Of a DNA stretch of 32,000 bases, positions 9,789 to 32,000 are shown in pieces. This DNA is from Acaryochloris marina MBIC11017 (GTDB lineage Bacteria > Cyanobacteriota > Cyanobacteriia > Thermosynechococcales > Thermosynechococcaceae): positions 5,760,001 through 5,792,000 of the forward strand of contig NC_009925.1 of assembly GCF_000018105.1 (NCBI RefSeq), in the 5' to 3' direction. A program made the translations under genes and the position numbers. The notes under the pieces were generated by a model. It did not search any database. It was not told the origin of the DNA and saw nothing but the letters and a program-made list of their open reading frames with translations. Positions within the stretch are counted from its first letter, which is position 1, and the number at the start of each line of letters is the position of its first letter.

Positions 9789-11714
9789 TTAAGGGATTTT
9801 GGCTTCTGTATTGATCTTGTAGTTATTGATAATGCGATTGAGGGGTTTTTCAAGTTCCTTGAATTGATCATTGGGAACGATGAAGCTTAGAATAGCCACT
9901 CGTTTGTCTTTGCGTTCAATAAAGCTATTGCCCAGCAGTTTTACTTCAATGTTGCCGGTTGCTTTGGCGGTATACCCCCAGATGAGCAAAACGCTGCCAT
10001 CTTTTTGGGGTTTAGCGTCTCGGAGAAAGAAGCCCGGTTCCTTCTCAAACGAGTTCTTGAGGAAATCTTGGAGTAACTTGGTTAAATCATCCTGGGTGGG
10101 ATCATAGTCAACATCGAAAATATCGGCGACGAGTCCACCGTTACGGGTTGGATCGGTCCATAATACAATCACTTCACCCGGCTTGCTATTGTCTTTGCTT
10201 TTCCATCCATCGGGAACCAGTAAGGAAAAGGCTTTGGTTTTATGGGTATAGGTGGATAAATTATCAATTTCGACGGACTTAAACCGCCGCCGACTGGGCG
10301 GGGATGGGCTGGGCGAGGGGCTGATCCGAGGGGAAGAGGAGCTAGATTCAACTGGCGAACTCGATTCTTCTGAGGATACGGTTGGATCGACACTATTAAA
10401 GCCAGCGTAGACAACACCACCCAGAATGATGAAGGTCAAACCACCGGCAATGGCCCATAACTTAACGTTATTATTGCTGGGCTCTTCCACTGCAGCAACT
10501 TGTTGTACAGGGGCAGAATAGTTGGCGGCGAAAGGATTAGATGACTGGGTGGCCTGGGGGGACGGCTGAGTCGGAGGTGGGGCCGCTGGCATGGTTGGCG
10601 GCATGGTTGGTGGTACCCCAGCGACGGGGGGTGGCTGCATGATTTTGGTGGGGGGTGGCTCTATCTGAGTATTGAGGGCTTGAATGATTTCTGCCGCAGA
10701 CTGGTATCGATCCACCGGTCGGGGTGCCAACATCTTGTTGAGGATATCAGCCAAGTTAGGGCTTAAGCTGAGTTGTTTTTGCCAGAGCCACTCTAGAGAT
10801 TGGGGATCTTGGAGCTGCTGGGGTGGATGTCCCGTCATCAGCACTAAAGCCGTCACTGCTAGGGCATATAAGTCACTATGGGGGGCCACTAAGCCGAGGC
10901 GCATCTGCTCATCGGGCGCATAGCCAATTTTCCCTAAGCGAGTCCCGCCTGTGGATGCTCCAGGAGAACTCCCTTGAGTGGCCACTTCTGTGGCAACGTC
11001 CAGAGCCACTTGCTTCACCCCACCCATGTCAATCAGGATGGGTAAACCATCTTTGTTCCGCCGGATAATGTTATCGGGGGAAATATCTCGATGAATCACT
11101 CCCTGGCCATGGAGATAACTGAGGACTGGCAGCAGATCTCGGAATAGTTGCGTGACTTCGGTTTCGCTAAAGGTTTGCCCTTGCTGTTGGCGTCCTTCTA
11201 ATAATTGCTGGTATGTGGAGCCTTCGGCGAAATCTTGGACCAGGAATAGCCGTTTTTGGGCGGTAAAAAGCTCCCAGAATCTGGGGATTTGGGGATGCTC
11301 AAGGCGATGGAGGGTGGCCGCTTCTCTTTGGAAGAGTTCTTCCGCTTTCTTTAGGGCGTAGGTGCCTTGAACGGATGGCGTTAATTCCTTGAGGACAATA
11401 ATTTCGTTAAAGCGTCCGGTATCCTCTGCTCGGTAGGTTCTGCCAAATCCACCTTGTCCCAACTGTTGTTGAATCACATAGCGATCGCGGAGTCGCGTTC
11501 CAGGAGGTAACGAGGTATGGATATTTTCTGTGGGGTCTATGTTTGCAGTCGCTTGGGTAGGGGAAGTAGCAGATTGATTGCTGGTTTGAGGAGCGACTGC
11601 AGGGCTGTTTGATCCTGTTGTCGGCGGTTTCAACAATGAAGTCCCACAATATTGGCAGAATCGAGAGTCTGATGAATTTTCTCGCCCACAGGAACTACAC
11701 GTAATCTGAGTCAT
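9789..11714 (-). CDS. Hanks-type Ser/Thr protein kinase: N-terminal zinc ribbon, kinase domain, Pro-rich linker, one TM helix, extracytoplasmic domain of about 160 aa
   Basis: Zinc ribbon CSSCG...CQYCG. Kinase motifs GQGGFGRTY, VLKEL, HRDISPDN, DMGGVK, YAPDEQ. TM helix LWAIAGGLTFIILGGVVYAGF. The C-terminal domain is unassigned (FSLLVPDGWKS...). Confidence 0.9.
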   Translation of the reverse strand: MTQITCSSCGRENSSDSRFCQYCGTSLLKPPTTGSNSPAVAPQTSNQSATSPTQATANIDPTENIHTSLPPGTRLRDRYVIQQQLGQGGFGRTYRAEDTGRFNEIIVLKELTPSVQGTYALKKAEELFQREAATLHRLEHPQIPRFWELFTAQKRLFLVQDFAEGSTYQQLLEGRQQQGQTFSETEVTQLFRDLLPVLSYLHGQGVIHRDISPDNIIRRNKDGLPILIDMGGVKQVALDVATEVATQGSSPGASTGGTRLGKIGYAPDEQMRLGLVAPHSDLYALAVTALVLMTGHPPQQLQDPQSLEWLWQKQLSLSPNLADILNKMLAPRPVDRYQSAAEIIQALNTQIEPPPTKIMQPPPVAGVPPTMPPTMPAAPPPTQPSPQATQSSNPFAANYSAPVQQVAAVEEPSNNNVKLWAIAGGLTFIILGGVVYAGFNSVDPTVSSEESSSPVESSSSSPRISPSPSPSPPSRRRFKSVEIDNLSTYTHKTKAFSLLVPDGWKSKDNSKPGEVIVLWTDPTRNGGLVADIFDVDYDPTQDDLTKLLQDFLKNSFEKEPGFFLRDAKPQKDGSVLLIWGYTAKATGNIEVKLLGNSFIERKDKRVAILSFIVPNDQFKELEKPLNRIINNYKINTEAKIP

Positions 11715-11918
11715 AGAATTAGCATTTCAATTAATGCAGCATTGTCCAAACCAAGTGAAACGCAGAAGTGATTGACCCCTTTCCCATACTGGCGTGTAGC
11801 CATTGATAATTTCAGTATGAGTATTAATTAAGATGTCTGAGACTTCCTGCGTTCACATCATAACCTAGCTCAGTTTAGGTCCTGTTTGAATGATAAAGAT
11901 CACCTGAATTGTCCCGTT

Positions 11919-13922
11919 TTATTCAATCTCAATATTGATGCTGTAGGGGCTGGTTTGATTGGTCGATACTTCGAAGCGATAATCTCCAGATTGAGGTAGT
12001 TGCCCTTGCCAATTGGTTGCCTGAGAGTCGAGTTGACCGATGAGTTGGCCACTGGGACTGAAGAGAGTTAACTGAATATCCCCTTGGCTGATCTTGACTC
12101 CCATAAACTGCTGTGCTCCGGCATTGAGCAAATATCGCTGCCGTTGGCCGGGTTGAATCGTGTTGTTGAGTTGAGTCCCCGTTGTACCAGGGGCAAACTG
12201 CACCCTTGAGGTGGTGTCTTTTGGAGAGATTGGTCTGGGAGTGACCACTTCAACGTCTACGGAAAATTGTTCAGCCCCAGGCTGCTGATTTTCTACCGCG
12301 ATAGTATAGTCCCCATTTGTAGGTAAGGTTGTTTTATCCACAGGGGTTTGCCGATCAGCTTGGGCAATCACACGACCTTGAGGATCGAGGACTTGAACTT
12401 CTACACTGCCCCTGGTTAAGCGCACCGTCATGGTTTGTTGGGCTTGAGCCTGGAGGAGGAACGGTTGCCGTTCATGCTGATTCAAGGTTTGAGTCAATAC
12501 AGCTTCTGTTGCTCCTGGGGCAAACCGAACCCGATTCGCGCCTAACGGGCATACTTGCCGGGTTAAGTTTTTGGAAACCCAACCGTCAGGAGATTGAATT
12601 TGCAGCCATTTCCCTTGGGAACCGAGCACTGACAAGGGGGTGCCGTTGTCAGCGGTGGCAACGATATTGTTGGGGGAGACTTCTGGACTGGACCGAATAT
12701 TTAGGGGAGGGTTTGGATCATTGACGGTGACCTTGCAGTTGGAGGGGAGCGGCGTAATGTTTCTGGTGGGGGGAGGACTGAATGAAGGGGTGGGGGAGGG
12801 CTCAGCAGAGGGTTCAACAGAAGCAGAAGGACTGACGGTCGGATCTGAGGATCGTCCATTGAGTCCTGAAAAATTAGGCATTAGACCGAGGGCGTAAGCG
12901 CCCCCTAGACCTGATAAACCGACAATCCCAGCAGCAATCCACCAAGAACTACGAGACGGTTGGGGAGAAACGGGTTTTGGACTCACAACATTGGTGGCAG
13001 GTAAGTCGGTTGGGGTTGGGTTGGGAATGGGGGCGGTAGGGGGGATGGATCCACTGTGAATAACGGGTTCGGTGGGAGGAATGGCGGCAGGGATAGGTTG
13101 CGAAAGGAGCTGCAAATCTTGAAGAACGTCTGCAACCGATGGGTAGCGAGTATTAAATTGAGATCGCACCATCCGTTCCAAAATTTCAGCAAACCGGGGA
13201 GACACCTGGGGAGCTAGGGAACGCCACTGAATCTCCGCCGTTTGTTCATTAAAGGGAAGCTGTATGGGTTCTACCCCCGTCATGGCTTTGATACCAATCA
13301 TGCCAACGGCATAAATATCGCTGTTGAGGCGAGGGCGGCCCGATAGCTGTTCCCCTGGCATATATCCTTGGGTGCCGATGCCCACGGTATAGCCGACGGA
13401 TTGGCCTGCGGGGGCAATTTGAGTGCGGATTTCTTTGACAGCCCCGAAATCAATTAAGACCAAATGACCATCGGCTCGGCGACGAATCAGGTTGTCCGGC
13501 TTGATATCCCGGTGAATGACTTGGTGATAGTGAACGAAATGCAAGACGTTGAGAATCTCTTGCACAATGCCCAACACTTGGGCTTCGGGTAGGGGTTGGC
13601 CCAGGGGCATTTCATCACTGAGGGGCTGACCTTGAATAAATTCCTGAACGAGATAAAATTCCTTTTGATCTTCAAAGTAGGCGAGTAGCTGGGGAATCTG
13701 ATCATGGCGTCCTAGTTTCTCCAGCATTTCCGCTTCGGTTCGAAACAGACGTCGAGCCACATCAATAAATTGGGTATCAGAGCTGGCTGGTTTCAGATGC
13801 TTCACCACGCATTGGGGATTGCCCGGTCGGCGAGTATCTTCGGCAATATAGGTTTGGCCAAATCCACCGGCCCCTAAGACTGCCGTCACCCTATAGCGCT
13901 GATCGAGCAAAGTACCCAGCAT
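11919..13922 (-). CDS. Hanks-type Ser/Thr protein kinase with TM helix, SH3b-like module and two tandem beta-sandwich-like repeats of about 95 aa
   Basis: Kinase motifs GAGGFGQTY, VVKHLK, HRDIKPDN, DFGAVK, YMPGEQ. TM helix WWIAAGIVGLSGLGGAYALGL. SH3b-like segment LNIRSSPEV...GKWLQIQSPDGWV. Repeats begin VRFAPGATEAVL... and VQFAPGTTGTQL.... The start is preferred at the ATG at 13922 (MLGTLLDQRYRV). The track start at 13961 adds 13 aa. Confidence 0.9.
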   Translation of the reverse strand: MLGTLLDQRYRVTAVLGAGGFGQTYIAEDTRRPGNPQCVVKHLKPASSDTQFIDVARRLFRTEAEMLEKLGRHDQIPQLLAYFEDQKEFYLVQEFIQGQPLSDEMPLGQPLPEAQVLGIVQEILNVLHFVHYHQVIHRDIKPDNLIRRRADGHLVLIDFGAVKEIRTQIAPAGQSVGYTVGIGTQGYMPGEQLSGRPRLNSDIYAVGMIGIKAMTGVEPIQLPFNEQTAEIQWRSLAPQVSPRFAEILERMVRSQFNTRYPSVADVLQDLQLLSQPIPAAIPPTEPVIHSGSIPPTAPIPNPTPTDLPATNVVSPKPVSPQPSRSSWWIAAGIVGLSGLGGAYALGLMPNFSGLNGRSSDPTVSPSASVEPSAEPSPTPSFSPPPTRNITPLPSNCKVTVNDPNPPLNIRSSPEVSPNNIVATADNGTPLSVLGSQGKWLQIQSPDGWVSKNLTRQVCPLGANRVRFAPGATEAVLTQTLNQHERQPFLLQAQAQQTMTVRLTRGSVEVQVLDPQGRVIAQADRQTPVDKTTLPTNGDYTIAVENQQPGAEQFSVDVEVVTPRPISPKDTTSRVQFAPGTTGTQLNNTIQPGQRQRYLLNAGAQQFMGVKISQGDIQLTLFSPSGQLIGQLDSQATNWQGQLPQSGDYRFEVSTNQTSPYSINIEIE

Positions 13923-14046
13923 AAAGGTCCCCTGTGCAACACTCCTGATTCTGGCACACAATGATCTCAGTTCCCGCGTGATGGGAGTGATGGTCGCGTA
14001 TCATCAATGGGGCTTTGTTTATATTCTGCTGCTGAACTGAGTTTTC

Positions 14047-17440: not shown

Positions 17441-20400
17441 ATGAAAGACCCTAAAGGGATTTCCCTAGATCTGGCACCAGAGAGTAATGAGCAGGTATTT
17501 GGACCGGCATTGCATAACATTTCTTCCTCCTCAAAATTGGATGATGGTCAGGATGCTGTTCATTATGCTCGACGCTTGCAAACCCTTTCGAGCAGTATCA
17601 GCCGGATTCGGAAATTACTAGACTTAACGGCTATTTTGGAGGCGACGGCTGAAGAGGCACGAACTGTTCTAAATGCAGATCGCGTAGCAGTGTTTCAGCT
17701 GGAGCGAGACAATCAATCTCGCGGGGCATTTGTGGCTCAATCTGTTGCTAGTAATTGTTCATCCATACTGGGGCAACCAGCTTGTGACCACTATTTTGGC
17801 GATCGCTTTGTGGCTGCCTATCGACAAGGAAGATACCAAGCTCTAGCGGATGTTGAGTCAGGTGAAATTAGCGAGTGTCATGCTGATATTTTAAGAAAAT
17901 TGCAGATCAGGGCCAATTTAGTGGTTCCTGTCTTGCAAGAAAAATATCTTTGGGGGTTGTTATGTGTCCATCAATGTCATACCCCCCGTGAATGGCAGCA
18001 AGAGGACATTCAGTTTGTTCAGAATTTAGCAGAGCATTTTGGAGTTGCCGTTTCTCAAGCAGAGTTGATTCAAGAAGAAAAAGTTAGAACTCATCAACTT
18101 TCTGCTGCATTAGAGCGAGAGAAACGTTTAACGGAAACCTTTGGTAAGATCCATCAATCCTTGGGAATTGATGCCCTGATTCGCTCGGCAACGGTGGAAT
18201 TACAGCATCTACTGGATGTGGATCGGGTGGCAGTCTTTCAATTTAAATCAAACCAATTGAGGCAAGGGGAATATATTGCTGAACAAGTCAGGGAAGGCAG
18301 GACGTCAATATTGACGGAACCCACTTGCGATCGCAACTATTGCCAGCAACTCGCAAACCTCGTTCGAGAACAGACCCCGCAGGTCATTTCAAATATCGAT
18401 ACCACTCTAGAAGAAGGAAGCTTTAAAGCTCACCTACAGCATTTCGACGTAAAAACTCTCTTGTTATTACCGTTATCCCAAGAGAATTCTCTTTGGGGAT
18501 GTCTAGTCATTCATCAATGTGCAAATATTCGAGAATGGTTAGAGGATGATCTGAGATATTGCCAGCAAATTAGTGAACAACTGAGTGCTGCTCTTACCCA
18601 GGCTGCTTCAGTTGATCAAGTCTACCAACAGAGTATAGAACTCAAAAAAACGACGGAGCATCAAAAAGTATTAGTAGACACCATTGATAAGGTGCGGCAA
18701 TCTCTAGATACGGATGTTGTTTTTCAGACGGCTACAGAAGAAGTCTTAAAACTGATCAACGTAGATCGAATTGCCATTGCCCAGTTCAATTCTAGTTGGG
18801 GTTACTCGTTTATTGCCGAATCCTTTAAGTATGGTTGTTCTCCTTTAGTTGGAAATATCCCGCCCATCGAAGATGCATATTTGCAAGCTTCCCAGGGGGG
18901 GAATTTCGTTAATCATGAAATTGATATTATTGATGATATTTATGCAGCTGACCTGGCAAAGTATCAACTCAAGTTATGGGAAACCTTAGATGTCAAAGCT
19001 TGTGCTTTGGCCCCCATCTTTTTAGGCGAACAGCTATGGGGGTTGTTTGGTGCATTTCAAAATTCTAAGTCTCGGCATTGGTCCCAGGATGAGATTAGTT
19101 TATTGACGCAGGTCGCAGCCCAACTTGGCGTGGCCTTACAACAGGGAAATTACCTCCAAGAACTCAAAGAAAAAACAGCTCAACTTAATCAAGCAGCTGA
19201 ACGGCAAAAGTCTTTAGCCAAAACGATTGATAAAATCAGGCAATCTCTGAATATTGATGATATTTTTCAGACGACAACGGTTGAAGTTCGTCAATTGCTA
19301 GGAGTGGACCGGGTGGCTATTTATCGGTTCAATTCAGATTGGAGTGGCTCCTTTGTGGCGGATTCCATTGTGGATGGATGGGCGCCTAATCTGAATCCTC
19401 AAGCTCCTGTAGAAACCGTATTGGCAAAGTTAGACAAAGAAGGGACTTATCCCCGTCATGAAACCTTTGTCCCCATTGTGTTGGGAGATAAGTTTTGGGG
19501 ATTATTAATTGCCTACCAAAGCGCAAGACCCCGTTACTGGCAGGAGGATGAAGCATCCTTATTGGCCCAAGTTGGAAATCAATTGGGCGTAGCCCTCCAA
19601 CAAGCAGAACTCTTAAAGCAAACTCAACAACAGGCCGCCGATTTACAGCAGGCACTGCAAGAGTTAGAGACAACCCAGTCCCTGCTGATGCAGGGAGAAA
19701 AAATTGCCATTAATCAGGCCTATTTATTGAAGCAAGAACGAGAAAATAACCGACTCTTGAAAGAAGCTCGAAAAGCCGCAGAAGAGGCTGTCCAAGCCAA
19801 GAGTGAGTTCCTCGCCAATATGAGCCACGAAATTAAAACCCCTATGAATGGGGCTTTGGGGATGGCAGGGTTGTTATTAGATACAGAACTACAGTCTGAG
19901 CAACGCAACTTTGTGGAAACGATTCAGAACTGTGGGGATTCGTTGATGGTAATTATCAACGATATTCTCGATTTCTCCAAAATTGAAGCAGGAAAGCTTG
20001 ATTTAGAGGAATGTTCCTTCAACTTACGAACCTGCATTGAAGAAGCCTTAGATTTATTGGCAGTGAAAGCGGCGCAAAAGCAGTTGGAACTCAATTACCT
20101 TTGGCATGCCGACATCACAGAACAGGTAGAGGGGGACCCAACTCGGTTACGTCAAATTCTGGTCAACTTGATAGGGAATGCCATTAAGTTTACAAATGTG
20201 GGAGAGGTGACGGTAGCCGTTGGTGCCCGTGAAATACAACATGTTTGTGCTTTAGATCCTCAAAAAATTGCCGAAGAGGTTCAGCACTTTGAAGTGGAAA
20301 TTGCGGTGAATGATACGGGGATTGGGATACCACCGGACAATATGAGTCGTTTGTTTGACTCTTTTAGCCAAGTTGACTCATCCATTACTCGGCAGTATGG

Positions 20401-21397
20401 GGGGACAGGCTTGGCGCTCACGATCAGTAAACACTTATGTGAACTGATGGGGGGACGAATGTGGGTTAGAAGTGAGGTTGGGAAGGGCTCTAGCTTTGCC
20501 TTTACGGTGCAACTACAAGTCAAGCCAGAGTCAGCAGGATTGGCAGCCGAAACCCGGACTCCAGCACTCGCCAACAAACGAGTCTTAATTGTTGATGACA
20601 ATGTAACTAGTCGAAGACTGCTCACCCAACAAACCATTGACTGGGGAATGAAACCAAAATCGGCAAACTCGGTGGAGGACGCCCTTAAAATGTTGCAGAA
20701 TGTGCCGGAGCCTTTTGATGTTGCCATCATTGATTGGCAAATGCCTCAAAAGGATGGAGGCGTTTTGGCCCAAGAAATTCGGAATCGATCGGCCTTAGCC
20801 TCAATGCCTTTGATTGTATTGTCCACGGTGATTGATTCAAAACTGAAAGCTGAAAATAAATTGCTCTTTCAAGCTCGATGCCATAAACCAATTAAGCCAA
20901 AACTATTACGACAATCATTACTGGACGTATTTGCAGCACCAGAACTCTCTAGGAAAGTGCCTCAATCCACTGCCCCTAAGATTGATGAAGAGTTAGCTCA
21001 GCAATTCCCCTTAAAGATATTAGTGGCTGAAGATGTGGTTGTGAACCAAAAATTAGTACTGCTGCTGTTACAGAAAATGGGATACCGGGCTGATGTTGTT
21101 CAAAATGGATTGGAAGCTTTAGATGCCCTACATCGACAACCTTATGATTTAATTCTGATGGATATGCAGATGCCCGAAATGGATGGGTTGACCGCTGCTC
21201 GTCAGATTTGTGAGGAGTATTCGGAGGCTGAAAGACCCTATATTATTGCGTTGACGGCTAATGCAATGCAAGGGGACCGACAAAGATGCTTAGATGCTGG
21301 AATGAATGCTTATATTAGTAAACCCATTCAAGTCGAAGAGCTAGTCAGAGCCATTCAGGCTATTCCCCAGAAGACGTCTCAGAACCAAGCAGCTTGA
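17441..21397 (+). CDS. Hybrid sensor histidine kinase: 4 GAF domains, coiled coil, HisKA, HATPase_c, 2 receiver domains (1318 aa)
   Basis: Approximate GAF domains: aa 53-210, 232-386, 412-567, 592-722. Each begins with DR(V/I)A(V/I) and ends with LWG..(x)..HQ...R.W. H-box [12 protein letters not shown] (His796, 19826-19828). N-box GNAIKFT, G1 DTGIGI, G2 GGTGLAL. REC1 has VLIVDDN...IIDWQMP (Asp1098, 20732-20734). REC2 has ILVAEDV...LILMDMQMP (Asp1241, 21161-21163). Confidence 0.92.
17597..18070 (+). other. GAF1: phytochrome/cyanobacteriochrome-like GAF retaining the canonical Cys-His
   Basis: The segment ...[59 protein letters not shown] matches the remembered CBCR pattern (CH...L...(V/I)(K/R)ANLVVP(I/V)L). 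Cys146 is at 17876-17878. An extra Cys115 lies in ACDHYF (17783-17785). Confidence 0.55.
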
Positions 21398-24057: not shown

Positions 24058-24684
24058 ATGTATATTATCCAGTCAGCGAATTTAATGGCGCGGGGCATAT
24101 TGACGGATCAATCTGCTTCACTCATGATTCGAGGGAGATGGTTTAGACCTGGCCCTGCATTTGCCCAATCATTGCGTCAAATAGCAATTGAGTTTTGTGA
24201 AGAGTCACTTTCTCAGGGACGACAATACATACTGATTGAATTTCCCTTGTACTTTATGGCTTGGCGTCGTTTTCGTCCCAATCAAGAGACTCAAGCCCAA
24301 TCGAGCAAGTCTTTGAAATTCACGGTAAATCCACAACAAGTGAGACCTACAACCTATCAGTGGTCACCCGCTTTTACAAAGCCCACTTTCCCAAATAAAC
24401 AGTTTTCTCAATCAGATCGAGATAAAGAAAGAATCAAAACTCCAAAATTAGGTGGTGCTGGAATTGATCATGTGTTGATCAAACAGTGTAAAGCAGAGCT
24501 AGCGATCCATATTGGCCCCATGGCCGACTATATTACAGAACAAACATTAAATAATTCGGCTCAACTGAGTTCTGAGCAACTTATTGCAGCCCTCGCTGCC
24601 CACATCCCGAATACGAAAGCAGGTCTCTTATTTAGGTGGACTTTAACAAAAAAAATGCAGGACCTGAATAATAAGCATGTTTAG
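24058..24684 (+). CDS. Hypothetical protein (208 aa)
   Basis: The ATG is preceded by GGGGGGATAAG. From memory only, the C-terminal module QCKAELAIHIGPMADYITEQTL...SSEQLIAALAAHIP resembles a helical module seen at the C-termini of some cyanobacterial Ser/Thr kinases. This is unverified. Confidence 0.5.
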   Translation: MYIIQSANLMARGILTDQSASLMIRGRWFRPGPAFAQSLRQIAIEFCEESLSQGRQYILIEFPLYFMAWRRFRPNQETQAQSSKSLKFTVNPQQVRPTTYQWSPAFTKPTFPNKQFSQSDRDKERIKTPKLGGAGIDHVLIKQCKAELAIHIGPMADYITEQTLNNSAQLSSEQLIAALAAHIPNTKAGLLFRWTLTKKMQDLNNKHV

Positions 24685-24875: not shown

Positions 24876-26180
24876 ATGGATCGACAAAGAGCAATCGGAG
24901 CCACGCTGATCCTTGCATTTATTTCCCTAGCAGGCTGCATATCGCTGCAATCTTCTCAGGCACAAAAGTCTCCCTCTCAAAAAAATAAGGCCAGGCAATC
25001 TATCACACTACGGAATGGTGCCATGACCCAGGGAACGACTGTCCCAAACTATTGGCATCAGCAGTGGGTGGGCAAAGGCAAGATATCTGTTACACGGGAT
25101 ACTCAAATCTTTAAACAGGGGCCTGCGGCCTTAAAAGTAGCCAGTACTTCTGGCCCGGCAAAAGGACAAGCCTTTCAACTGATCCAAGGTTCACCCAATC
25201 AATCTTTCACTATCAGTGGTTTTGCCAAATCAACTGGAAGGGTCAAGGTCAATGTTGCGATTCAGTCCTTCTCTAAAAAATCGCGTCCCCTCCAATTCCG
25301 GCAAGTCCAGTATCTCCACAATACCCAAGACTGGAGTTCCTTCTCTCAGGAGGTGACCTTACCGCCCAAGACCCATAAGTTTGGCATTGTGCTCCTAATA
25401 GAAGGTGAAGGAGAAGCTTGGTTAGATGAAGTCAAGTTGACTGGCACTAATGTGAAAAATATTGCCGGGAAGCTTGAACAAGCGTCTGCTCCAAACCAGC
25501 AAGATTCCACTGTTGTTAAGAAACAGCAAAATCCTACGGTTCCTACACCGGGTCACTACCCAAAGTTTCCCCAAGCCTGGCAAAAGCTTCACCAACAACA
25601 TCTCCAACAAACTCAGAAACGCGAAATCAATGTTGTCTTTCTGGGAGATTCGATTACTCGGGGATGGCAAAAACATAAAAAGCTCTGGCAGAAACACTAT
25701 GGCAAACTTGATGCGGTCAATTTTGGTATTGGTGGCGATCGTACCCAACAAGTTCTCTGGCGAATAAACAATGGCTTATTTGATCAGATCCAGCCCCAGT
25801 TGGTTGTTCTCAATATTGGTGTCAATAATCTCTGGCAAGATGGTTATGGTTCAGAACAGATTGCTGCAGGAATTGAGAAGATTGTTGCTGCCATCCACAC
25901 TAAAAGCCCAAAAACAAAAATTCTGCTGCTTGGAATTTTACCGACAGGTAAGCAATTAAATGCTCCAAAAAGAGAAAAAATTCAGGCTATTAATAGCAAA
26001 ATTAGACAGCTCGATAATGGCTCGACAATCCGATTTTTAGATATGGGTTCAAACTTCTTGGAACCTGATGGTTCAATTTCTAAAGACGTTATGCCAGACT
26101 ATTTGCATTTATCCAGGCAAGGCTATCAAATTTGGGCTACATCAATGGAAAAAACATTAAGTGAGATGTTGAATGAGTAA
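24876..26180 (+). CDS. Lipoprotein SGNH/GDSL hydrolase (esterase) with an N-terminal CBM-like beta-sandwich module
   Basis: A lipobox is present (ISLAGC, Cys at about aa 21). SGNH blocks I-III and V are present: VVFLGDSITRGW, FGIGGDRT, GVNNLW, DYLHLS. The N-terminal 170 aa has a CBM_4_9-like look (...GFAKSTGRVKVNVAIQ...AWLDEVKL). Confidence 0.8.
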   Translation: MDRQRAIGATLILAFISLAGCISLQSSQAQKSPSQKNKARQSITLRNGAMTQGTTVPNYWHQQWVGKGKISVTRDTQIFKQGPAALKVASTSGPAKGQAFQLIQGSPNQSFTISGFAKSTGRVKVNVAIQSFSKKSRPLQFRQVQYLHNTQDWSSFSQEVTLPPKTHKFGIVLLIEGEGEAWLDEVKLTGTNVKNIAGKLEQASAPNQQDSTVVKKQQNPTVPTPGHYPKFPQAWQKLHQQHLQQTQKREINVVFLGDSITRGWQKHKKLWQKHYGKLDAVNFGIGGDRTQQVLWRINNGLFDQIQPQLVVLNIGVNNLWQDGYGSEQIAAGIEKIVAAIHTKSPKTKILLLGILPTGKQLNAPKREKIQAINSKIRQLDNGSTIRFLDMGSNFLEPDGSISKDVMPDYLHLSRQGYQIWATSMEKTLSEMLNE

Positions 26181-26792
26181 TTTTATCATCTCTTTATTAG
26201 ATTTTTATCAAATGCTGACATTTCAGATATCTCTGTCAGTACGGCAATTAGGCTGGGAATCATATAAATAAGAATTAGCGATTGTTCTAAAGCTAAAACA
26301 TCAGAATCTATTTGCTAAATGCAATAAATTTTTATTGGATAAAAATTGTGTTGTTTTAGTTTAAAGGGCGCAAAATATTTGCAAGTCCTCATCGGATTCT
26401 TTAGTGCTCTCTAGCAAGTTAGAAGAAGAGAGTTTTTATTAGTTGAGCATATTTGTGAGCGCGAGTCATAAATGTTGAGGGGATTCGAAATGTCAATAAT
26501 CTTAGTCAGATCAGTATCCATAAAACGTAGCCGACTGGACTCATATCCGATATCGAGAGCGTTAGGTCATACAAGATAGTATCTCTACAGCAAATATCTT
26601 TGCTACTACTATCACAGAAATCAGGCTGATTAGCTATTACGAATCCAAAACTATTCAGGTTGTGGTCGTCTATGACCTGTGGTGTCACTACTCTAATTTC
26701 ACTTAGTCACCACTAAATAAAAAACAAAGATAGTGAGTTCAAGTAAAAGTTCTCACTGATATCTATAGCTGTTTTCCTCTGATTATAAAAAT

Positions 26793-26814
26793 ATCCCTTT
26801 TGTAGAAAAGGGAT
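26793..26814 (+). other. Perfect 9-bp stem / 4-nt loop hairpin in the leader of the RTX-repeat gene
   Basis: Arms are atccctttt (26793-26801) and aaaagggat (26806-26814), with loop gtag. The hairpin lies 57 nt upstream of the ATG at 26871. Confidence 0.35.
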
Positions 26815-26870
26815 GGAATATTTTCTGACTAAAAATAGATCAATTATTGAGGATATAAAAATAAGAGAAA

Positions 26871-29800
26871 ATGCTAAATTTTGATGATTATTTAATTAAA
26901 ACATATGGTGGCTATCAAGAACAGAACCTTAGCTTTTCCACACTGTCAAATGGCAATATATTGCAGTTGTCTGGGAATGGCTGGAAAAAAATTAGACGAC
27001 CTTATCAGATTACTAGAAATACAGTTCTAGAATTTGACTTCAAAAGCAATATCCAAGGAAAGATTCACAGTATTGGTTTTGATAATGACAATGTTCTGAG
27101 TTCAAACCAGAGTTTTCAGCTCTATGGCAGTCAACCTTGGGGATTATCTCAGTTCAATGATTATCCGGCTACTGGGGACTGGCTCTCTTATCGGATTCCG
27201 GTCGGAGAATTTTTTACGGGGCAGTTTGCCTATTTAACCTTTGGCAACCATCAAGATACCCCTCAACCCAATGCTAATGGCTTTTTCCGAAATGTCAGGG
27301 TGTTTGAACAAGTTTCCGCTCCCTCATCAACGCAGACTGGTTCGGGAACTCCTGCATTTGCATCCCAGCTTTCAGCGTCGATGCCAGCCACATCGATGGC
27401 CACAATTGGTGAAGTTGGGCAAATTTCAGGACTGACCCATCTCAAACAGACAATTGAACTTCAGCACAACTATATCAATCCCGTTATCTTTGCCCAAACC
27501 CTGAGTTTTAATGGAGGACAACCAGCAACGGTTCGCATTGACAACATTCAAAGTAATCGGTTTGAACTCTATATCCAGGAGCCTAGTAATCATGATGGTC
27601 GACATGTACCCGAAAACATTAGTTTCATCGTCTTGGAGGCTGGTTCCTGGGTTCTAGAAGATGGAACCCAGTTAGAAGTTGGTACTTTGAAAACCAATCG
27701 TTTAGTCACCAGCGGATTTGAAACCGTTGACTTTAGCCAAAAATTTTCAGATTCTCCCATCGTTTTTAGCCAGGTTCAAACCGCTGACGGTTCGGATTTT
27801 GTTCGTACACGACAACAAAAGACATCGGCTATTGGCTTTCAGGTCGGCATGGAAGAGGAGGAGAAGAAAAAATACTCAGGTCATGTATCAGAGTCGGTAG
27901 GGTGGTTAGCTATTGAGCCTGGATCGGGAACTTGGGGAAGGCTAGCTTATCAAGTTGGGCAAACCAGAGATACGGTGACCCATGATTGGGCATCTATTGA
28001 TCTGTCCGGTTTTACGTCCACCCCCAATTTTTTAGCGTCTCTTGCTTCTTATGATGGATCCGATTCGGCTGGGGTTCGTTATCGTAATCTTCACAATACT
28101 TCTGTAGAAGTCAAGGTAGAAGAAGACACCACTGCAGATGCGGAGACTTCCCATACGAGCGAAGTTGTTAGTTTTTTAGCCATTCAAGGCAGTGGGTTAC
28201 TTCAAGGTTCTAAATCTACGAACTCTACAACTGACACTGGAGGAACTGTGGCGACACGGGATGTAACCCAGCGGCCTTTTGCTGCCAATTCGATCTGGAA
28301 TACCCCCATTGGATCTGATGCTGAATATGTTGATGCCAAGATTGAATGGGCTAAAAATGCAACAGTGGATGTCGATCATTTTTATATCCTCAAGGGTGAT
28401 GATCCGCTACAACCGCTTTATAAACATGGGACCTGGGGACCTGGTCGAACAACGGGCAGTGCCTATCAAGGAATTTCCCTGCCCCTTCCGAATGATTTAC
28501 GGATTGCGGATTCGACCAATACCAAGACACCCAATAATTCTGCGGCTTTCTTGATGCCTGATGGTCGGACCTTGGTTCAGGTGAATGCATTGACCCGCGA
28601 TCGCAACAACGATTTCGTCTATGGCCAACGATTACCCTTTACCCTGAATGTTGCTCGGTATGAGGATATTTATGGAACAGGTATAGAGGGAGCCCATGCG
28701 GGGTCTGGGTTATCCTCCATCGGCGGCACCATTCGAAAGGGCGAATTGATTGGCTCTGATCCCATCCGCCATGCCCTGAAAGTAAATCTTTGGACTAAAA
28801 ACTATTTTTCCTATACCGATGGTCCAGGTGGTGGATTGGGTTATCGGTGGCCCGCGGTCAAAGCGGATACCCATGCTAGTCCAGGAACCTATGCGGGTGC
28901 AGTACCTGAACTGCTCAACGGCAGCTTGCTGGCTATCCCACCAGATATGACACCGGATAAATTAGGGATACAGACAGAAGTTGGTAAAAAACTCTTCTAT
29001 GCCTTTCAGGACTATGGGGCCTATCTTGCTGATGATACTGGATGGGATGCCCATGCCATCGCGGTTGAAAAAGGGGTCACTAAAGAATTCTCTGACCACT
29101 ATGGCTTTAGTTTTACGGACAACAGTGGTCCTTTTTATGAAGACTATATGCAGTTGTTTTCGGCCTTGCATGTCGTCGATAACAATGCCCTAGACAATAT
29201 CGGCGGGGGAGGAACACCCCGTGCTCCTCTAGCTCCAGATTTTGACGTTGCTCCTCCGCCAGCATTTATCGGTAACGCCGACTCGAACAACCTAGAGGGA
29301 GATGACCAAGCCAACCGAATGGATGGCAAAGCAGGAAACGATCTGATCCTAGGTCGTGGTGGACATGATTTCATCACTGGTGGGTCGGGTAGAGATACCC
29401 TCGATGGGGGTAAGGGCAATGATCATCTTATTGGTGATACCAGCTCTGATCATTTGCTAGGGGGAGATGGGAATGACTATTTAGATGGAGGAGCCTATGG
29501 TGACACCCTGGAAGGAGGAGATGGAGACGATCATCTGACGGGGGGAACTGGTAAAGATCGCTTCATGGGTGGAGCTGGATTTGACACTGTGATCGAGTCT
29601 GATGATATTGACTTTGAGCTGACTAAGAACAAACTGATTGGCACCTGGACCGATACCCTTGACAGTATTGAGCACGTCATTCTCAGTGGTGGGGATAGCA
29701 ATAACAAACTAGATGCATCCCAATTTCAAGGTACGGTCCATTTAAATGGTGGTGAAGGCCATGATCAGTTAATCGGTGGGCAACAGGGCGATGTCTTGGT

Positions 29801-30131
29801 CAGCAGTTCTGGGAATGACAGCCTGACAGGGGGGGCAGGTACCGATACGTTTGATGTAGTGGGGCGAGTTGAGTTTTTACAAAGTAATCGTAGTACCCCT
29901 TTGAAGACAGGTGAATTTGCGCTTATTAATGACTTCAACAAGGATAAAGACACCCTCATCCTTCTGGGATCTGCCCAACAGTATGTTGTCGGTATTAGCA
30001 ATATAGGGGCAGAAATATACTTGGATACCAATGGTGATGGCATCACCACTCAAGCGGATGAAATCGTCGCGATTATCAAGGGTTCAAATTCATTTAACCT
30101 AGACGGTTCGTTTGTTAAATACCTTGATTGA
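26871..30131 (+). CDS. Large multidomain secreted protein (1086 aa): CBM-like N-domain, 3 tandem repeats of about 85 aa, uncharacterised domain of about 320 aa, RTX (GGxGxD) Ca-binding repeats, C-terminal tail
   Basis: This is the first start codon in a long open frame. There is no N-terminal signal peptide (MLNFDDYLIKTYGG...). RTX nonapeptides are present, for example GGSGRDTLDGGKGNDHLIG, GGDGNDYLDGG and GGDGDDHLTGGTGKDRFMGGAGFDT. The central domain is homologous to the product of the adjacent convergent gene. Confidence 0.9.
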   Translation: MLNFDDYLIKTYGGYQEQNLSFSTLSNGNILQLSGNGWKKIRRPYQITRNTVLEFDFKSNIQGKIHSIGFDNDNVLSSNQSFQLYGSQPWGLSQFNDYPATGDWLSYRIPVGEFFTGQFAYLTFGNHQDTPQPNANGFFRNVRVFEQVSAPSSTQTGSGTPAFASQLSASMPATSMATIGEVGQISGLTHLKQTIELQHNYINPVIFAQTLSFNGGQPATVRIDNIQSNRFELYIQEPSNHDGRHVPENISFIVLEAGSWVLEDGTQLEVGTLKTNRLVTSGFETVDFSQKFSDSPIVFSQVQTADGSDFVRTRQQKTSAIGFQVGMEEEEKKKYSGHVSESVGWLAIEPGSGTWGRLAYQVGQTRDTVTHDWASIDLSGFTSTPNFLASLASYDGSDSAGVRYRNLHNTSVEVKVEEDTTADAETSHTSEVVSFLAIQGSGLLQGSKSTNSTTDTGGTVATRDVTQRPFAANSIWNTPIGSDAEYVDAKIEWAKNATVDVDHFYILKGDDPLQPLYKHGTWGPGRTTGSAYQGISLPLPNDLRIADSTNTKTPNNSAAFLMPDGRTLVQVNALTRDRNNDFVYGQRLPFTLNVARYEDIYGTGIEGAHAGSGLSSIGGTIRKGELIGSDPIRHALKVNLWTKNYFSYTDGPGGGLGYRWPAVKADTHASPGTYAGAVPELLNGSLLAIPPDMTPDKLGIQTEVGKKLFYAFQDYGAYLADDTGWDAHAIAVEKGVTKEFSDHYGFSFTDNSGPFYEDYMQLFSALHVVDNNALDNIGGGGTPRAPLAPDFDVAPPPAFIGNADSNNLEGDDQANRMDGKAGNDLILGRGGHDFITGGSGRDTLDGGKGNDHLIGDTSSDHLLGGDGNDYLDGGAYGDTLEGGDGDDHLTGGTGKDRFMGGAGFDTVIESDDIDFELTKNKLIGTWTDTLDSIEHVILSGGDSNNKLDASQFQGTVHLNGGEGHDQLIGGQQGDVLVSSSGNDSLTGGAGTDTFDVVGRVEFLQSNRSTPLKTGEFALINDFNKDKDTLILLGSAQQYVVGISNIGAEIYLDTNGDGITTQADEIVAIIKGSNSFNLDGSFVKYLD
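28272..29237 (+). other. Uncharacterised conserved domain, copy A (aa 468-789 of the RTX-repeat protein)
   Basis: By eye it aligns along its full length with aa 61-373 of the 30136-31266 product. Shared blocks are SIWN.PIGS, LKGDDP.QP, TPNN..AFLMPDGRTLVQ, GAH.GSGLSSIGG.IR.GEL, PIRHALK.NLW, GYRWPA, GSLLAIPPD, QDYGAY..DDT.W.AHAI, GGGG.PRAPLAP. Confidence 0.85.
29271..29860 (+). repeat. RTX / hemolysin-type calcium-binding nonapeptide repeat block (two runs separated by a spacer of about 35 aa)
   Basis: GGxGxDxLx-type units repeat in the translated sequence from GNADSNNLEGDD to GGAGTDTFDV. Confidence 0.85.
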
Positions 30132-30135
30132 GCTG

Positions 30136-31266
30136 TTAATCGTGAATGGGCGGTGCCAAGGGTGCTCTAGGGTCGCCCCCTCCGCCCACTGATTCAGGGG
30201 TATTGTTAGATACGACTGAAAGTCTAGTAAACAACTTCATCACATCCTCAAAAAAAGGACCTTCTGAGCGATTAAACCCATAGCCGTAGGTCTGTCGAAA
30301 CTCTTTCAGGACACTATGCTCCAAGGGGATGGCATGGGCATTCCAGGCCGTATCATCCACCACGTAAGCGCCATAATCTTGCAACGCATGGAAGAGCTTT
30401 TTGGCGGGTTGTGTTTTGAGTCCCAGACTGGACGCAGTGATATCAGGGGGAATGGCCAATAGTGAGCCTTGAACCAGCTCGGGATTCTTACCACCATATT
30501 GCTGAGCTGCATACTTATCCGCGCGATCTGCTGGCCAACGATATCCAGGGATGCCCTTGGAATAGTAAAGATATTTTTTACCCCACAAGTTAATCTTTAA
30601 AGCATGCCGAATAGGGGCGTCTCCCACTAATTCCCCTTCCCGGATGGAGCCACCGATAGAAGACAATCCTGATCCAAAATGAGCACCTCCAATACCGGCA
30701 TCGTAGATATCGACATTGGGAAAATATCGCCAGCCGTAGATGGGACCGCCTGGCTTACAGCGTGCTAAAGGTTCTAGCTGAACCAATGTCCTGCCGTCTG
30801 GCATTAGAAATGCAGAGGCATTATTGGGGGTCTTTCCTTTCCCTGCATCTGGAACGATCAGATCATCTGGAACAGGCAGGGAAATCTTCATGGACTTTTT
30901 TTTGCCTTTACAGCGCTTTCTCCAAGAACCAGGTGCATAGACCGGTTGGCGAGGATCATCGCCCTTTAATTCAAAGAAATACTCTTCATCGGATCGCAAT
31001 CGGGGAGCTGGCTTAATGTGGGCGGGCTGATATTGAGCATTGGAGCCAATGGGCATATTCCAGATGGAGTCGGCGGAAAACGGCCAGAGAAATTTATCTC
31101 GAGAGGTGGGGGCGCTGTGGCTATAGTCCACTGGATAAGACGAGATGCGTCGCTCGAGCGCAGATGAAGAGCCGCTACTAACCTGTTGACAGGCTAAGAG
31201 TCCGAACATGCCAAGCAGAACGCACAATAAAATGAAATACTGTTTATAGCGATTTCTATTCAACAT
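30136..31266 (-). CDS. Lipoprotein consisting almost entirely of the same uncharacterised domain (376 aa)
   Basis: The signal peptide has a lipobox (LLGMFGLLAC, Cys26). Residues 61-373 are roughly 50-60% identical (estimated by eye) to aa 468-789 of the convergent RTX-repeat protein. The gene lies 58 nt downstream of a GT2 gene on the same strand. Confidence 0.85.
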   Translation of the reverse strand: MLNRNRYKQYFILLCVLLGMFGLLACQQVSSGSSSALERRISSYPVDYSHSAPTSRDKFLWPFSADSIWNMPIGSNAQYQPAHIKPAPRLRSDEEYFFELKGDDPRQPVYAPGSWRKRCKGKKKSMKISLPVPDDLIVPDAGKGKTPNNASAFLMPDGRTLVQLEPLARCKPGGPIYGWRYFPNVDIYDAGIGGAHFGSGLSSIGGSIREGELVGDAPIRHALKINLWGKKYLYYSKGIPGYRWPADRADKYAAQQYGGKNPELVQGSLLAIPPDITASSLGLKTQPAKKLFHALQDYGAYVVDDTAWNAHAIPLEHSVLKEFRQTYGYGFNRSEGPFFEDVMKLFTRLSVVSNNTPESVGGGGDPRAPLAPPIHD

Positions 31267-31324: not shown

Positions 31325-32000
31325 CTAGCCAAATTTGAGTTGTGCCTTCACCCGCTCTAGCGCCGTTAAATGCTTGATAAAGGTCAACACAAGCCACAGC
31401 TGCAGTTTCTGGTGGACCGTATCTACCCGTGCCCGAGCAAAGGTCTTGAAAGGGGGGAAGACATCTCTGACAATATCCTTGATGAATTTCTTTAAGGTGT
31501 AGGTACTAGACTGGCTCAAGTCATAGGGGCCTCGGGTTGTTCTGAGGATTTTCTGGTAAAGCTGTGCAAAGGAATGCCGAGCTGGGTGATGGACAAAAGC
31601 CTCTGCTGAATAGACTTGTGGATACCCTGCCTTGAACACTCGTTGTCCCCATTCATAGTCCCCACCAGATTTCAGGGTTTGATCAAACAAACCGACTTTG
31701 TGGAAGACCGATTTAAAGGTAAAGACATTGGCCGTAGCGCCAAACTTGGCATGTTTTAAATACAAATCTTGCTGTAAATACAGCACGCTATCACAGAGTT
31801 CAATGGGGTTTGGCTGTTGTGGATTTTGATAGCTGAATTCGATTCTGCCAGCCACTAGACCACAGTTGGGAGTATCGTGTAAGCTCTGAACCCCTTTTTC
31901 AATCCAGTCAGGGGCAGGTATACAGTCTGCATCCGTGAACGCTAGGATGTTTCCTTTTGCGATCGCAATCCCAGTATTTCGGGCAGCATAGGACCCCCGC
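31325..32000 (-). CDS. Family 2 glycosyltransferase, 5'-truncated by the window edge
   Basis: The track ORF starts at a GTG at 31855. The frame stays open to position 31999 and reads RGSYAARNTGIAIAKGNILAFTDADCIPAPDWIEKG..., which includes a typical GT2 DxD region. The true start is beyond the window. Confidence 0.8.
   Translation of the reverse strand, partial: RGSYAARNTGIAIAKGNILAFTDADCIPAPDWIEKGVQSLHDTPNCGLVAGRIEFSYQNPQQPNPIELCDSVLYLQQDLYLKHAKFGATANVFTFKSVFHKVGLFDQTLKSGGDYEWGQRVFKAGYPQVYSAEAFVHHPARHSFAQLYQKILRTTRGPYDLSQSSTYTLKKFIKDIVRDVFPPFKTFARARVDTVHQKLQLWLVLTFIKHLTALERVKAQLKFG

Follow-up and report, generated by a model that had tools for sequence, protein, structure and literature searches.

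The gene pair and its shared domain

The stretch of DNA analysed here (the window) is 32,000 nucleotides of the chromosome of Acaryochloris marina MBIC11017. Near its end lie two convergent genes, encoding a 1086-residue protein with RTX repeats and a 376-residue protein with the features of a lipoprotein, which share a domain of about 320 residues (Table 1). We propose, with a probability of roughly 0.6, that this domain does the catalysis in a so far undescribed family of enzymes that depolymerise polysaccharides, as glycoside hydrolases (GH) or as lyases.

A BLASTP alignment of the two copies has 178/328 identities (54%) and 68% positives, with E = 1e-106. It bears out the original prediction, made from the DNA letters without database searches, that residues 468–789 of the longer protein align end to end with residues 61–373 of the shorter one, and begins six residues earlier on the N-terminal side. 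Each of the sequence blocks that had been quoted as invariant is present in this alignment in both copies.

The stop codons of the two genes are 4 bp apart (30129–30138). The convergent order and the 4-bp gap are identical in two metagenome-assembled genomes (MAGs) of Acaryochloris, L001 (7129–7138) and L002 (7126–7135), and in L129, a more distant metagenomic contig in which the short copy is 70% identical, the stop codons overlap by 4 nt (8168–8171). A terminator would not fit between stops so close together. The two transcripts must therefore overlap at their 3′ ends, and antisense or transcriptional interference between the convergent copies is possible. The neighbours of the pair in the window are cellular (DnaK/J, kinases, MetK and glycosyltransferases (GTs)), with no phage or prophage context. 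The window genes are not phage genes, though the domain is common to phages, as described below.

Table 1. Features of the gene pair and of the genes on either side of it (window positions)
Feature	Position	Strand	Description
SGNH/GDSL esterase	24876..26180	+	Pfam Lipase_GDSL_2, E = 5.3e-30; lipobox LAGC; co-directional with and upstream of the RTX gene
RTX protein gene	26871..30131	+	Open reading frame (ORF); 1086 aa, cysteine-free, pI 4.61; carries the shared domain; putative type I secretion substrate
Module A, β-jelly-roll resembling carbohydrate-binding modules (CBMs)	26871..27350	+	aa 1–160; AlphaFold2 model, moderate local confidence (pLDDT)
Module B, three H-type-lectin-like β repeats	27393..28220	+	aa ~175–450; Pfam, Foldseek
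Shared domain, RTX copy	28254..29237	+	aa 462–789; BLASTP; Cys pair of the family replaced by R and D
RTX nonapeptide repeats	29379..29855	+	Eight GGxGxD, aa 837–995; regular expression, Pfam, NCBIfam RTX/serralysin C-terminal region
C-terminal 91 residues past the last repeat	29856..30128	+	Presumed uncleaved signal for a type I secretion system (T1SS), from position only
Lipoprotein-type gene	30136..31266	-	ORF; 376 aa; pI of mature protein 9.13
Shared domain, lipoprotein copy	30151..31104	-	aa 55–372; BLASTP; with Cys119/Cys170 pair
Signal peptide and lipobox	31189..31266	-	aa 1–26, ending FGLLAC, Cys26; PROSITE-like and strict patterns
GT2 glycosyltransferase, 3′ part	31325..32000	-	Intact gene running off the window; co-directional with and directly upstream of the lipoprotein gene

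The two copies diverged long ago. The codon count from which this had been argued is exact: the best-conserved block, TPNN..AFLMPDGRTLVQ, has 16 identical residues, and the codons differ at 9 of them. Over the whole alignment the same applies to 94 of the 171 identical degenerate residues, at a nucleotide identity of 59%; the third base is the same at just 23 of 69 fourfold sites, and the synonymous sites are thus saturated. In a neighbour-joining tree of the family, 240 of the 274 leaves descend from the common ancestor of the two copies. The ratio of nonsynonymous to synonymous substitution rates (dN/dS), computed against the orthologues in the two Acaryochloris MAGs (79–81% identity), is 0.07–0.10 for the short copy, 0.09–0.12 for the RTX protein and 0.068 for the shared domain alone. 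Both genes are functional and under purifying selection, and the idea of an old duplication held by such selection stands.

A large family without a name

Pfam gave no match on the shared domain at E ≤ 1. The short protein matched nothing, and the long protein matched only RTX and, below threshold, H_lectin. NCBIfam gave only RTX-type C-terminal similarities, and left the shared domain unmatched in ten distant members as well. PDB sequences gave noise only when queried with the single protein, with two family profiles or with two phage proteins. The AlphaFold2 model of the 376-residue protein, made from a 40-sequence alignment, is confident (pLDDT 89.4, pTM 0.84), and has a β-rich N-terminal half and an α/β C-terminal half. 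Its best match to the PDB in Foldseek has only E = 1.0 and a query-normalised TM-score (TMq) of 0.11. A confident profile or structure match would remove the novelty of the domain; Pfam, NCBIfam and the PDB contain none, in agreement with the original prediction, which could not assign the domain to a characterised family. The catalytic family and its fold appear to be undescribed in every library searched (Pfam, NCBIfam, PDB).

The family is nevertheless large. All 1,441 relatives found through a word index are hypothetical or nameless. An exhaustive profile search gave 2,945 representatives (50% clustering) at E ≤ 1e-3, of which 996 are at E ≤ 1e-30, and a scan of GTDB species genomes gave 543 relatives, the best 78 all being cyanobacterial. 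The family ranges over cyanobacteria, Paenibacillus, bacteria with a type IX secretion system (T9SS) and actinobacteriophages. The names that distant members carry at NCBI, such as ‘fibronectin type III’ and ‘discoidin domain-containing protein’ (Paenibacillus swuensis, P. roseopurpureus), come from their accessory domains. A full-text literature search with six motifs of the family gave one match, which was irrelevant, and literature searches for a characterised cyanobacterial or phage family gave nothing fitting.

Two candidate identities were rejected. ZepA, the zinc-uptake exoprotein of Anabaena (PMC10957091), is set apart by its H-x(2-9)-H-[FY]-H motif and by a two-domain fold of another kind. 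GH183/DUF4185 and GH172 have no Pfam match here, and are kept as precedent only.

The top-scoring representative of the family has three tandem copies of the domain (P0121, 1309 aa; cf. P0270, 1731 aa, and P0271). The source of this protein is the MMETSP/EukProt transcriptomes of the chrysophyte Dinobryon, and it could be a eukaryotic acquisition or come from bacterial contamination of the culture.

Phage relatives and conserved residues

A Foldseek search of BFVD gave a minor tail protein of a Gordonia phage (E = 1.8e-18, TMq 0.67), as well as proteins of uncultured phages, one with a parallel β-helix. A hidden Markov model (HMM) of the family matched over the full domain in five Gordonia phage proteins at E = 1e-30 to 1e-33, namely Guillaume gp9, Stormageddon gp18, Sukkupi gp23, Trax gp22 and Annalisa gp28 (559–749 aa), and with tblastn the only phage matches were in Gordonia phages. 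The phage genes are found near lysin B, between portal and protease, and between the major tail protein and a chaperone, and one record annotates the protein as ‘glycosylhydrolase’. The profile of PHROG 17388 matched with E = 1.6e-12 and 5e-13, two stretches passing in each copy, the best-scoring of which corresponds to profile positions ~310–435 of 702. The full-domain HMM match, the Foldseek match and the core residues in common indicate true homology, although identity is about 24%, and neither the TPNN block nor H196, S199, S202 or the Cys pair is present in the phage copies. The PHROG 17388 proteins are themselves uncharacterised, ‘minor tail’ being an annotation name only.

In IMG/VR the domain occurs at 39 loci, in ORFs of up to 2,205 aa, some of them fused to Metallophos, to a PF04185 phosphoesterase or to a glycine-rich domain of the tail-fibre type. 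On the viral contigs L095 (3942–6608) and L104 (4725–7034) the fusion is to a calcineurin-like or PF04185 phosphoesterase, and Pur_ac_phosph_N is present in three cellular members. The phosphoesterase fusions and Pur_ac_phosph_N hint at phosphodiester-linked substrates.

Across 277 cellular domains, R56, S67, W69, N70, D157, R/K169, R209, E212, H221, W244, D250, Y257, Y298, Y301 and N354, plus several Gly and Pro, are each kept in 90% or more, and every phage copy has them too. About 25 positions are invariant between phages and cyanobacteria, charged and polar residues (R, E, H, D, Y, N) among them. Conserved His and Ser blocks had been taken as a sign of catalysis. This fails for the GAH.GSGLSS block, whose H196, S199 and S202 are T, A and P in the aligned phage homologues; D93, R118, N148 (in the TPNN block) and K224 are likewise not conserved there. 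The His and Ser of GAH.GSGLSS and the TPNN block are features of cellular members only, and since these residues are not conserved in phages they are all unlikely to be catalytic. A Ser-His-Asp triad on H196, S199 and S202 was rejected on the same grounds. Of the invariant blocks, therefore, these are missing from phage homologues, whereas the core polar set from phages to cyanobacteria (R56, N70, D157, R209, E212, H221, D250, Y257, Y298, Y301 and N354) is kept. E212 and D250, together with H221 and the conserved Tyr and Arg, would form the catalytic centre. The conservation of the carboxylates E212, D250 and D157 along with His, Tyr and Arg would suit hydrolase and lyase chemistry equally.

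Two probable routes of export

The N-terminal sequence MLNRNRYKQYFILLCVLLGMFGLLAC of the 376-residue protein fits both the PROSITE-like and the strict lipobox patterns ([LVI][ASTVI][GAS]C), and the lipobox LLAC is preceded by a charged n-region and a hydrophobic h-region. The lipobox is kept in P0001, P0003 and P0004 and in the Acaryochloris orthologues of L001 and L002. Among 106 short homologues a hydrophobic Sec-type N-terminus is present in 95 and a lipobox in 36. The description of a stand-alone lipoprotein thus fits the window copy but is not a trait of the family; to judge from these N-termini, the family is generally Sec-exported and lipidation is probably lineage-specific.

The RTX protein differs in almost every such respect. 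Within the first 60 residues its maximum 15-residue Kyte-Doolittle mean is 0.51, compared to 2.83 in the lipoprotein copy. It matches Pfam HemolysinCabind (E = 4.2e-23), and its C-terminal 297 residues have a pI of 4.08. It contains no cysteine, and neither do its orthologues in L001 and L002. The pair C119/C170, nearly invariant across the family, aligns pairwise with R and D in this copy. The pair is missing from all seven RTX-bearing relatives, six of which have no Cys at all, whereas the other members keep it in 214 of 270 cases. The clade of the RTX copy in the neighbour-joining tree has 13 cluster representatives, of which 10 are Cys-free, 11 are without an N-terminal hydrophobic segment and 7 have RTX. 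Lipases, proteases and S-layer proteins secreted by T1SS lack cysteine and have an acidic pI, and up to 28 RTX proteins are present in Acaryochloris marina (PMC3034196). The RTX repeats, the lack of a signal peptide and of cysteine and the pI of 4.6 all fit type I secretion of the 1086-residue protein.

Export of the two paralogues by different routes, as originally suggested, is therefore supported by these features, with a signal peptide, lipobox and Cys pair in one copy and a Cys-free, acidic, RTX-bearing and signal-less sequence in the other, and we hold it with higher confidence than the depolymerase assignment. The pair would be a natural case of one putative catalytic domain re-engineered for two secretion routes, the RTX copy having lost the putative disulfide pair, moved from a pI of 9.1 to one of 4.6 and acquired lectin modules.

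Accessory modules

The part of the RTX protein that precedes the shared domain had been described as binding-type modules. This is weakly confirmed by an AlphaFold2 model (pLDDT 72.8), in which a CBM-like jelly-roll (module A) is followed by H-type-lectin-like repeats (module B). Module A resembles the jelly-rolls of CBM29, CBM4 and CBM16 (Foldseek: 1w8u_A, E = 7e-3, probability 1.0, target-normalised TM-score (TMt) 0.55), and recurs at the N-terminus of P0127, which also bears CBM6/CBM35, and at the C-terminus of P0135. Module B recurs at the C-terminus of P0150 and P0139. The two modules occur on either side of the shared domain in other family members. The match of module B to Pfam H_lectin (PF09458) is weak (E = 0.018, 15.6 bits compared to a gathering cut-off of 24), while two other family members have H_lectin at E = 5e-5. 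The model of module B weakly resembles discoidin I/II, whose structures contain H-type lectin domains, which is consistent with the weak Pfam match.

The domain has many other partners. Among 57 multidomain relatives these are fn3 (15), F5/8-type-C (8), CBM_4_9 (6), Ig_Rha78A_N (5), RTX (4), T9SS tails (4), GDSL (3), CBM9 (3), CBM6 (2), M23 (2), the β-sheet domain of RGI_lyase (2) and H_lectin (2). An otherwise unknown domain that carries many different CBMs is usually a carbohydrate-active catalytic module. It might be argued that the domain has no catalytic role but binds glycans or serves in adhesion, and that both proteins are surface or secreted adhesins, given that no catalytic family is matched, and that cyanobacteria commonly possess RTX adhesins and surface proteins with lectin domains (PMC3034196). 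We regard this as the least probable of the readings considered: about 25 positions, polar and charged ones included, are invariant between phages and cyanobacteria at ~24% identity, the attachment of several different CBMs is the signature of a catalytic module, and dN/dS of the domain is as low as 0.068.

The partners also bear on a second alternative, which we think unlikely, namely that the domain is a hydrolase of peptidoglycan or the cell-wall core (a novel muramidase, lytic transglycosylase or amidase). Remodelling of the cell's own murein, in the manner of the Mlt lipoproteins, would then fall to the lipoprotein copy, while the secreted RTX copy would attack the walls of other bacteria; in phages the domain would serve to breach or lyse the wall of the host. 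Many lytic transglycosylases are indeed outer-membrane lipoproteins, two of the ‘minor tail’ homologues in Gordonia phages are encoded close to lysin B, and Peptidase_M23 is fused to the domain in two relatives. However, the 25 commonest accessory domains include CBM4_9, CBM6, CBM9, discoidin, H-lectin and fn3 but no LysM, SH3 or PG_binding, relatives are found in clusters for sugar import and GHs and at the ends of exopolysaccharide (EPS) synthesis clusters, and Foldseek finds no PDB fold match to any lysozyme, transglycosylase or amidase. A relative in a setting like that of a conjugative element counts on the side of the wall hydrolase: it is a 1543-residue protein (L132, 9001–13632; P0261, cf. 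P0189) composed of Peptidase_M23, CBM_4_9 and the family domain. Its neighbours, a protein resembling TraG and type IV secretion coupling proteins and a serine recombinase, suggest that it is the enzyme with which a conjugative element breaches walls.

Genomic context

The glycan-related neighbourhood claimed for the pair is thin inside the window, but real evidence for it lies just past the window end and at orthologous loci. The GT2 gene that runs off the window is 86% identical (blastx) to residues 70–293 of a GT2 in L001. There the co-directional order is GT4, GT2, sulfotransferase, GT2, GT2 and, as the last gene, the lipoprotein copy; on the convergent side the RTX copy is preceded by GDSL and a PhoD-like gene. 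An RTX-type relative, P0130 (L128), closes a cluster of GT4-GT4-sulfotransferase-GT4-Wzx-GT2, and the convergent pair of L129 abuts GT2 and GT4 genes and three sulfotransferases. Glycan-synthesis neighbours are found within 6 kb at 48 of 79 cyanobacterial loci, namely GT2 (23 loci), GT4 (18), UDP-galactopyranose mutase (12), GlfT2-like proteins (10) and Wzx (9).

In L001 and L002, too, the SGNH/GDSL esterase gene precedes that of the RTX paralogue, and GDSL domains are fused to some family members and adjacent to the family gene in L130 and L131. The esterase is likely to be a partner enzyme of the RTX copy, and the recurrence of SGNH/GDSL partners suggests acylated substrates. It has a pI of 10, and the roughly 210 residues before its GDSL domain, the part originally called CBM-like, have no Pfam match.

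Loci of the Paenibacillus type have a catabolic character, with ABC sugar permeases and binding proteins, AraC-type two-component systems and CBM-only proteins, and with GH36-like, GH4 and GH140 enzymes and GDSL and SASA esterases.

The biosynthetic clusters, with their sulfotransferases and GTs, would also suit an enzyme that modifies the polymer without cutting it, such as an epimerase, a transglycosylase or a de-decorating enzyme, and the conserved His, Tyr and Arg would be appropriate for proton abstraction at a uronate. There is a parallel in the mannuronan C5-epimerases, of which AlgG is periplasmic and the AlgE enzymes of Azotobacter are RTX-bearing and secreted by T1SS. We nevertheless consider this very unlikely, as structural or lysis-associated proteins of phages carry the domain and other relatives lie in catabolic sugar-import settings, both of which favour chain cleavage, and as neither Pfam nor Foldseek against the PDB finds any similarity to the β-helix domains of AlgG and AlgE. 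Both the polymer-modifying enzyme and the non-catalytic binder are less likely than the peptidoglycan hydrolase.

In Nostocales, two to three Sec-type copies are arranged in tandem in the same direction, with no pair of Sec and RTX copies (L010, L012, L013, L014, L025 and L027, and likewise L032, L039, L042, L045 and L046). The Nostocales loci (L004–L076) have a common anchor, consisting of an ABC1 kinase in 39 loci and a 125-aa membrane protein in 36. The GT set beside the anchor is one of several alternatives, with GLF/GlfT2-like genes, a Mannosyl_trans3-like gene and a 282-aa unknown protein, or GT2/GT4/Wzx, and the site looks like a variable surface-polysaccharide locus.

Proposed function

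The architectures, the phage homology and the combination of biosynthetic and catabolic contexts favour a polysaccharide depolymerase. The two copies would act on the organism's own EPS, which is probably sulfated and esterified, from two different compartments. The 376-residue copy would leave the cytoplasm by Sec, carry a lipid at Cys26 and gain stability from a Cys119–Cys170 disulfide. Its place of action would be the periplasm or the outer membrane, and its target the nascent polymer produced by the GT/sulfotransferase cluster that it terminates. The 1086-residue copy would be secreted unfolded via a type I system, with its CBM-like and H-lectin-like modules docking it onto released or capsular polymer, from which the upstream SGNH esterase probably strips acyl groups first. 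A secreted enzyme acting on a cell-surface polymer, as was first guessed, thus remains the best reading, to which CBM fusions, phage homologues and the EPS-cluster and sugar-import contexts all point.

A number of observations weigh against this proposal. Neither in sequence nor in fold does the domain show any likeness to a characterised GH or polysaccharide lyase (PL) family (Pfam, NCBIfam, PDB), and the choice between hydrolase and lyase, and even catalysis itself, depends on context. The two M23 fusions and the phage copies near lysin B also fit a cell-wall target. The neighbour counts are raw numbers with no random-locus control, inflated by the synteny of the Nostocales around the ABC1 kinase anchor (39 loci), and sulfotransferase and GDSL neighbours are found among the cyanobacterial loci only at those of the Acaryochloris type. 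The association between RTX and lack of Cys is confined to one clade and may be a single evolutionary event. Lastly, no T1SS genes (ABC transporter, membrane fusion or outer-membrane protein) are present in the window or in the flanks examined, so that the secretion of the RTX copy is itself an inference.

A wider interpretation, to which we give slightly less than even odds, is that the family is a new family of carbohydrate-active enzymes (CAZymes) with a fold unseen in solved structures, which cyanobacteria use to process their own, partly sulfated or galactofuranose-containing, surface polysaccharides, paenibacilli use to feed on such polymers, and actinobacteriophages use to cut the Gordonia envelope. 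It is speculation that the common substrate theme is a galactose-type glycan. GLF or GlfT2-like neighbours are present at 14 of the 79 cyanobacterial loci, all of them in Nostocales, so that there may be few independent events; there are GH36-like neighbours in two Paenibacillus-type loci, and discoidin and H-lectin fusions; and Gordonia walls contain a galactofuran core.

Cyanobacterial EPS shape mats, blooms, sheaths and motility. To our knowledge, the enzymes that cut or process them, sulfated ones included, are essentially uncharacterised. The family described here, of about 3,000 clusters at 50% identity, is nameless, has neither a Pfam nor an NCBIfam model and lacks structural relatives, which makes it a concrete target for a new CAZy family and a new fold. 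Its phage members could become envelope-degrading tools against mycolata.

Comparison with known systems

Degrading enzymes encoded within EPS biosynthesis clusters and exported to the periplasm are familiar from AlgL, PslG, PelA and BcsZ. The position of the lipoprotein copy as the last gene of a GT cluster (L001) is similar, but those enzymes belong to known PL and GH families and folds, none of which is matched by the window domain.

A closer parallel may be drawn with ExoK and ExsH, which are GH16 enzymes. ExoK is a β-1,3-1,4-glucanase (endoglycanase) encoded in the exo cluster of Sinorhizobium meliloti, and ExsH is a depolymerase that leaves the cell through the PrsDE T1SS. Succinoglycan is the substrate of both, and its acetyl and succinyl groups alter its cleavage by the two enzymes (PMC1403797). 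In that system, with which PlyA/PlyB and PrsDE of Rhizobium leguminosarum can be grouped, two paralogous enzymes serve one EPS, one being encoded in the cluster and one being of the RTX type and exported by T1SS. The counterparts in the window would be the Sec/lipoprotein copy that ends the GT/sulfotransferase cluster, the RTX copy and the adjacent SGNH esterase. From sequence features, a pair of Sec and T1SS paralogues is present, and family genes are encoded with EPS genes (L001, L128, L129). The differences are that the window has no GH16 β-glucanase domain, its putative catalytic domain having no match to any Pfam GH family at E ≤ 1 or to any PDB fold; that the Sec-type copy is a lipoprotein; and that the RTX copy bears lectin- and CBM-like modules. 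The pair would work like ExoK/ExsH without being a member of that family, so the logic of the system is one already known.

The GH183 (DUF4185) endo-D-arabinanases offer a precedent of another kind: this once-unknown domain, common to bacteria and to the lysis cassettes of actinobacteriophages, a Gordonia phage included, proved to be a cell-envelope glycanase (PMC10115798). The family is a different one, as no DUF4185 or other Pfam match is found on the window domain.

Other observations in the window

Between the esterase and the RTX gene is a 690-bp AT-rich intergenic region (26181–26870; 34% GC in the bin 26001–27000). It includes a palindrome with a 10-bp stem (26792–26815), which scores as a terminator on both strands. 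A scan of the window for promoters and terminators gave results not above shuffled expectation, and Rfam has no match anywhere in the window. A 208-aa ORF at 24058–24684 has no Pfam match and no counterpart in the syntenic L001 and L002, and may not be a real gene. Further upstream (9789–13961 and 17441–21397) are two genes for Ser/Thr kinases side by side, of which one has a zinc ribbon and the other SH3_3, and a gene for a 1318-aa multi-GAF hybrid histidine kinase, which are apparently unrelated to the pair.

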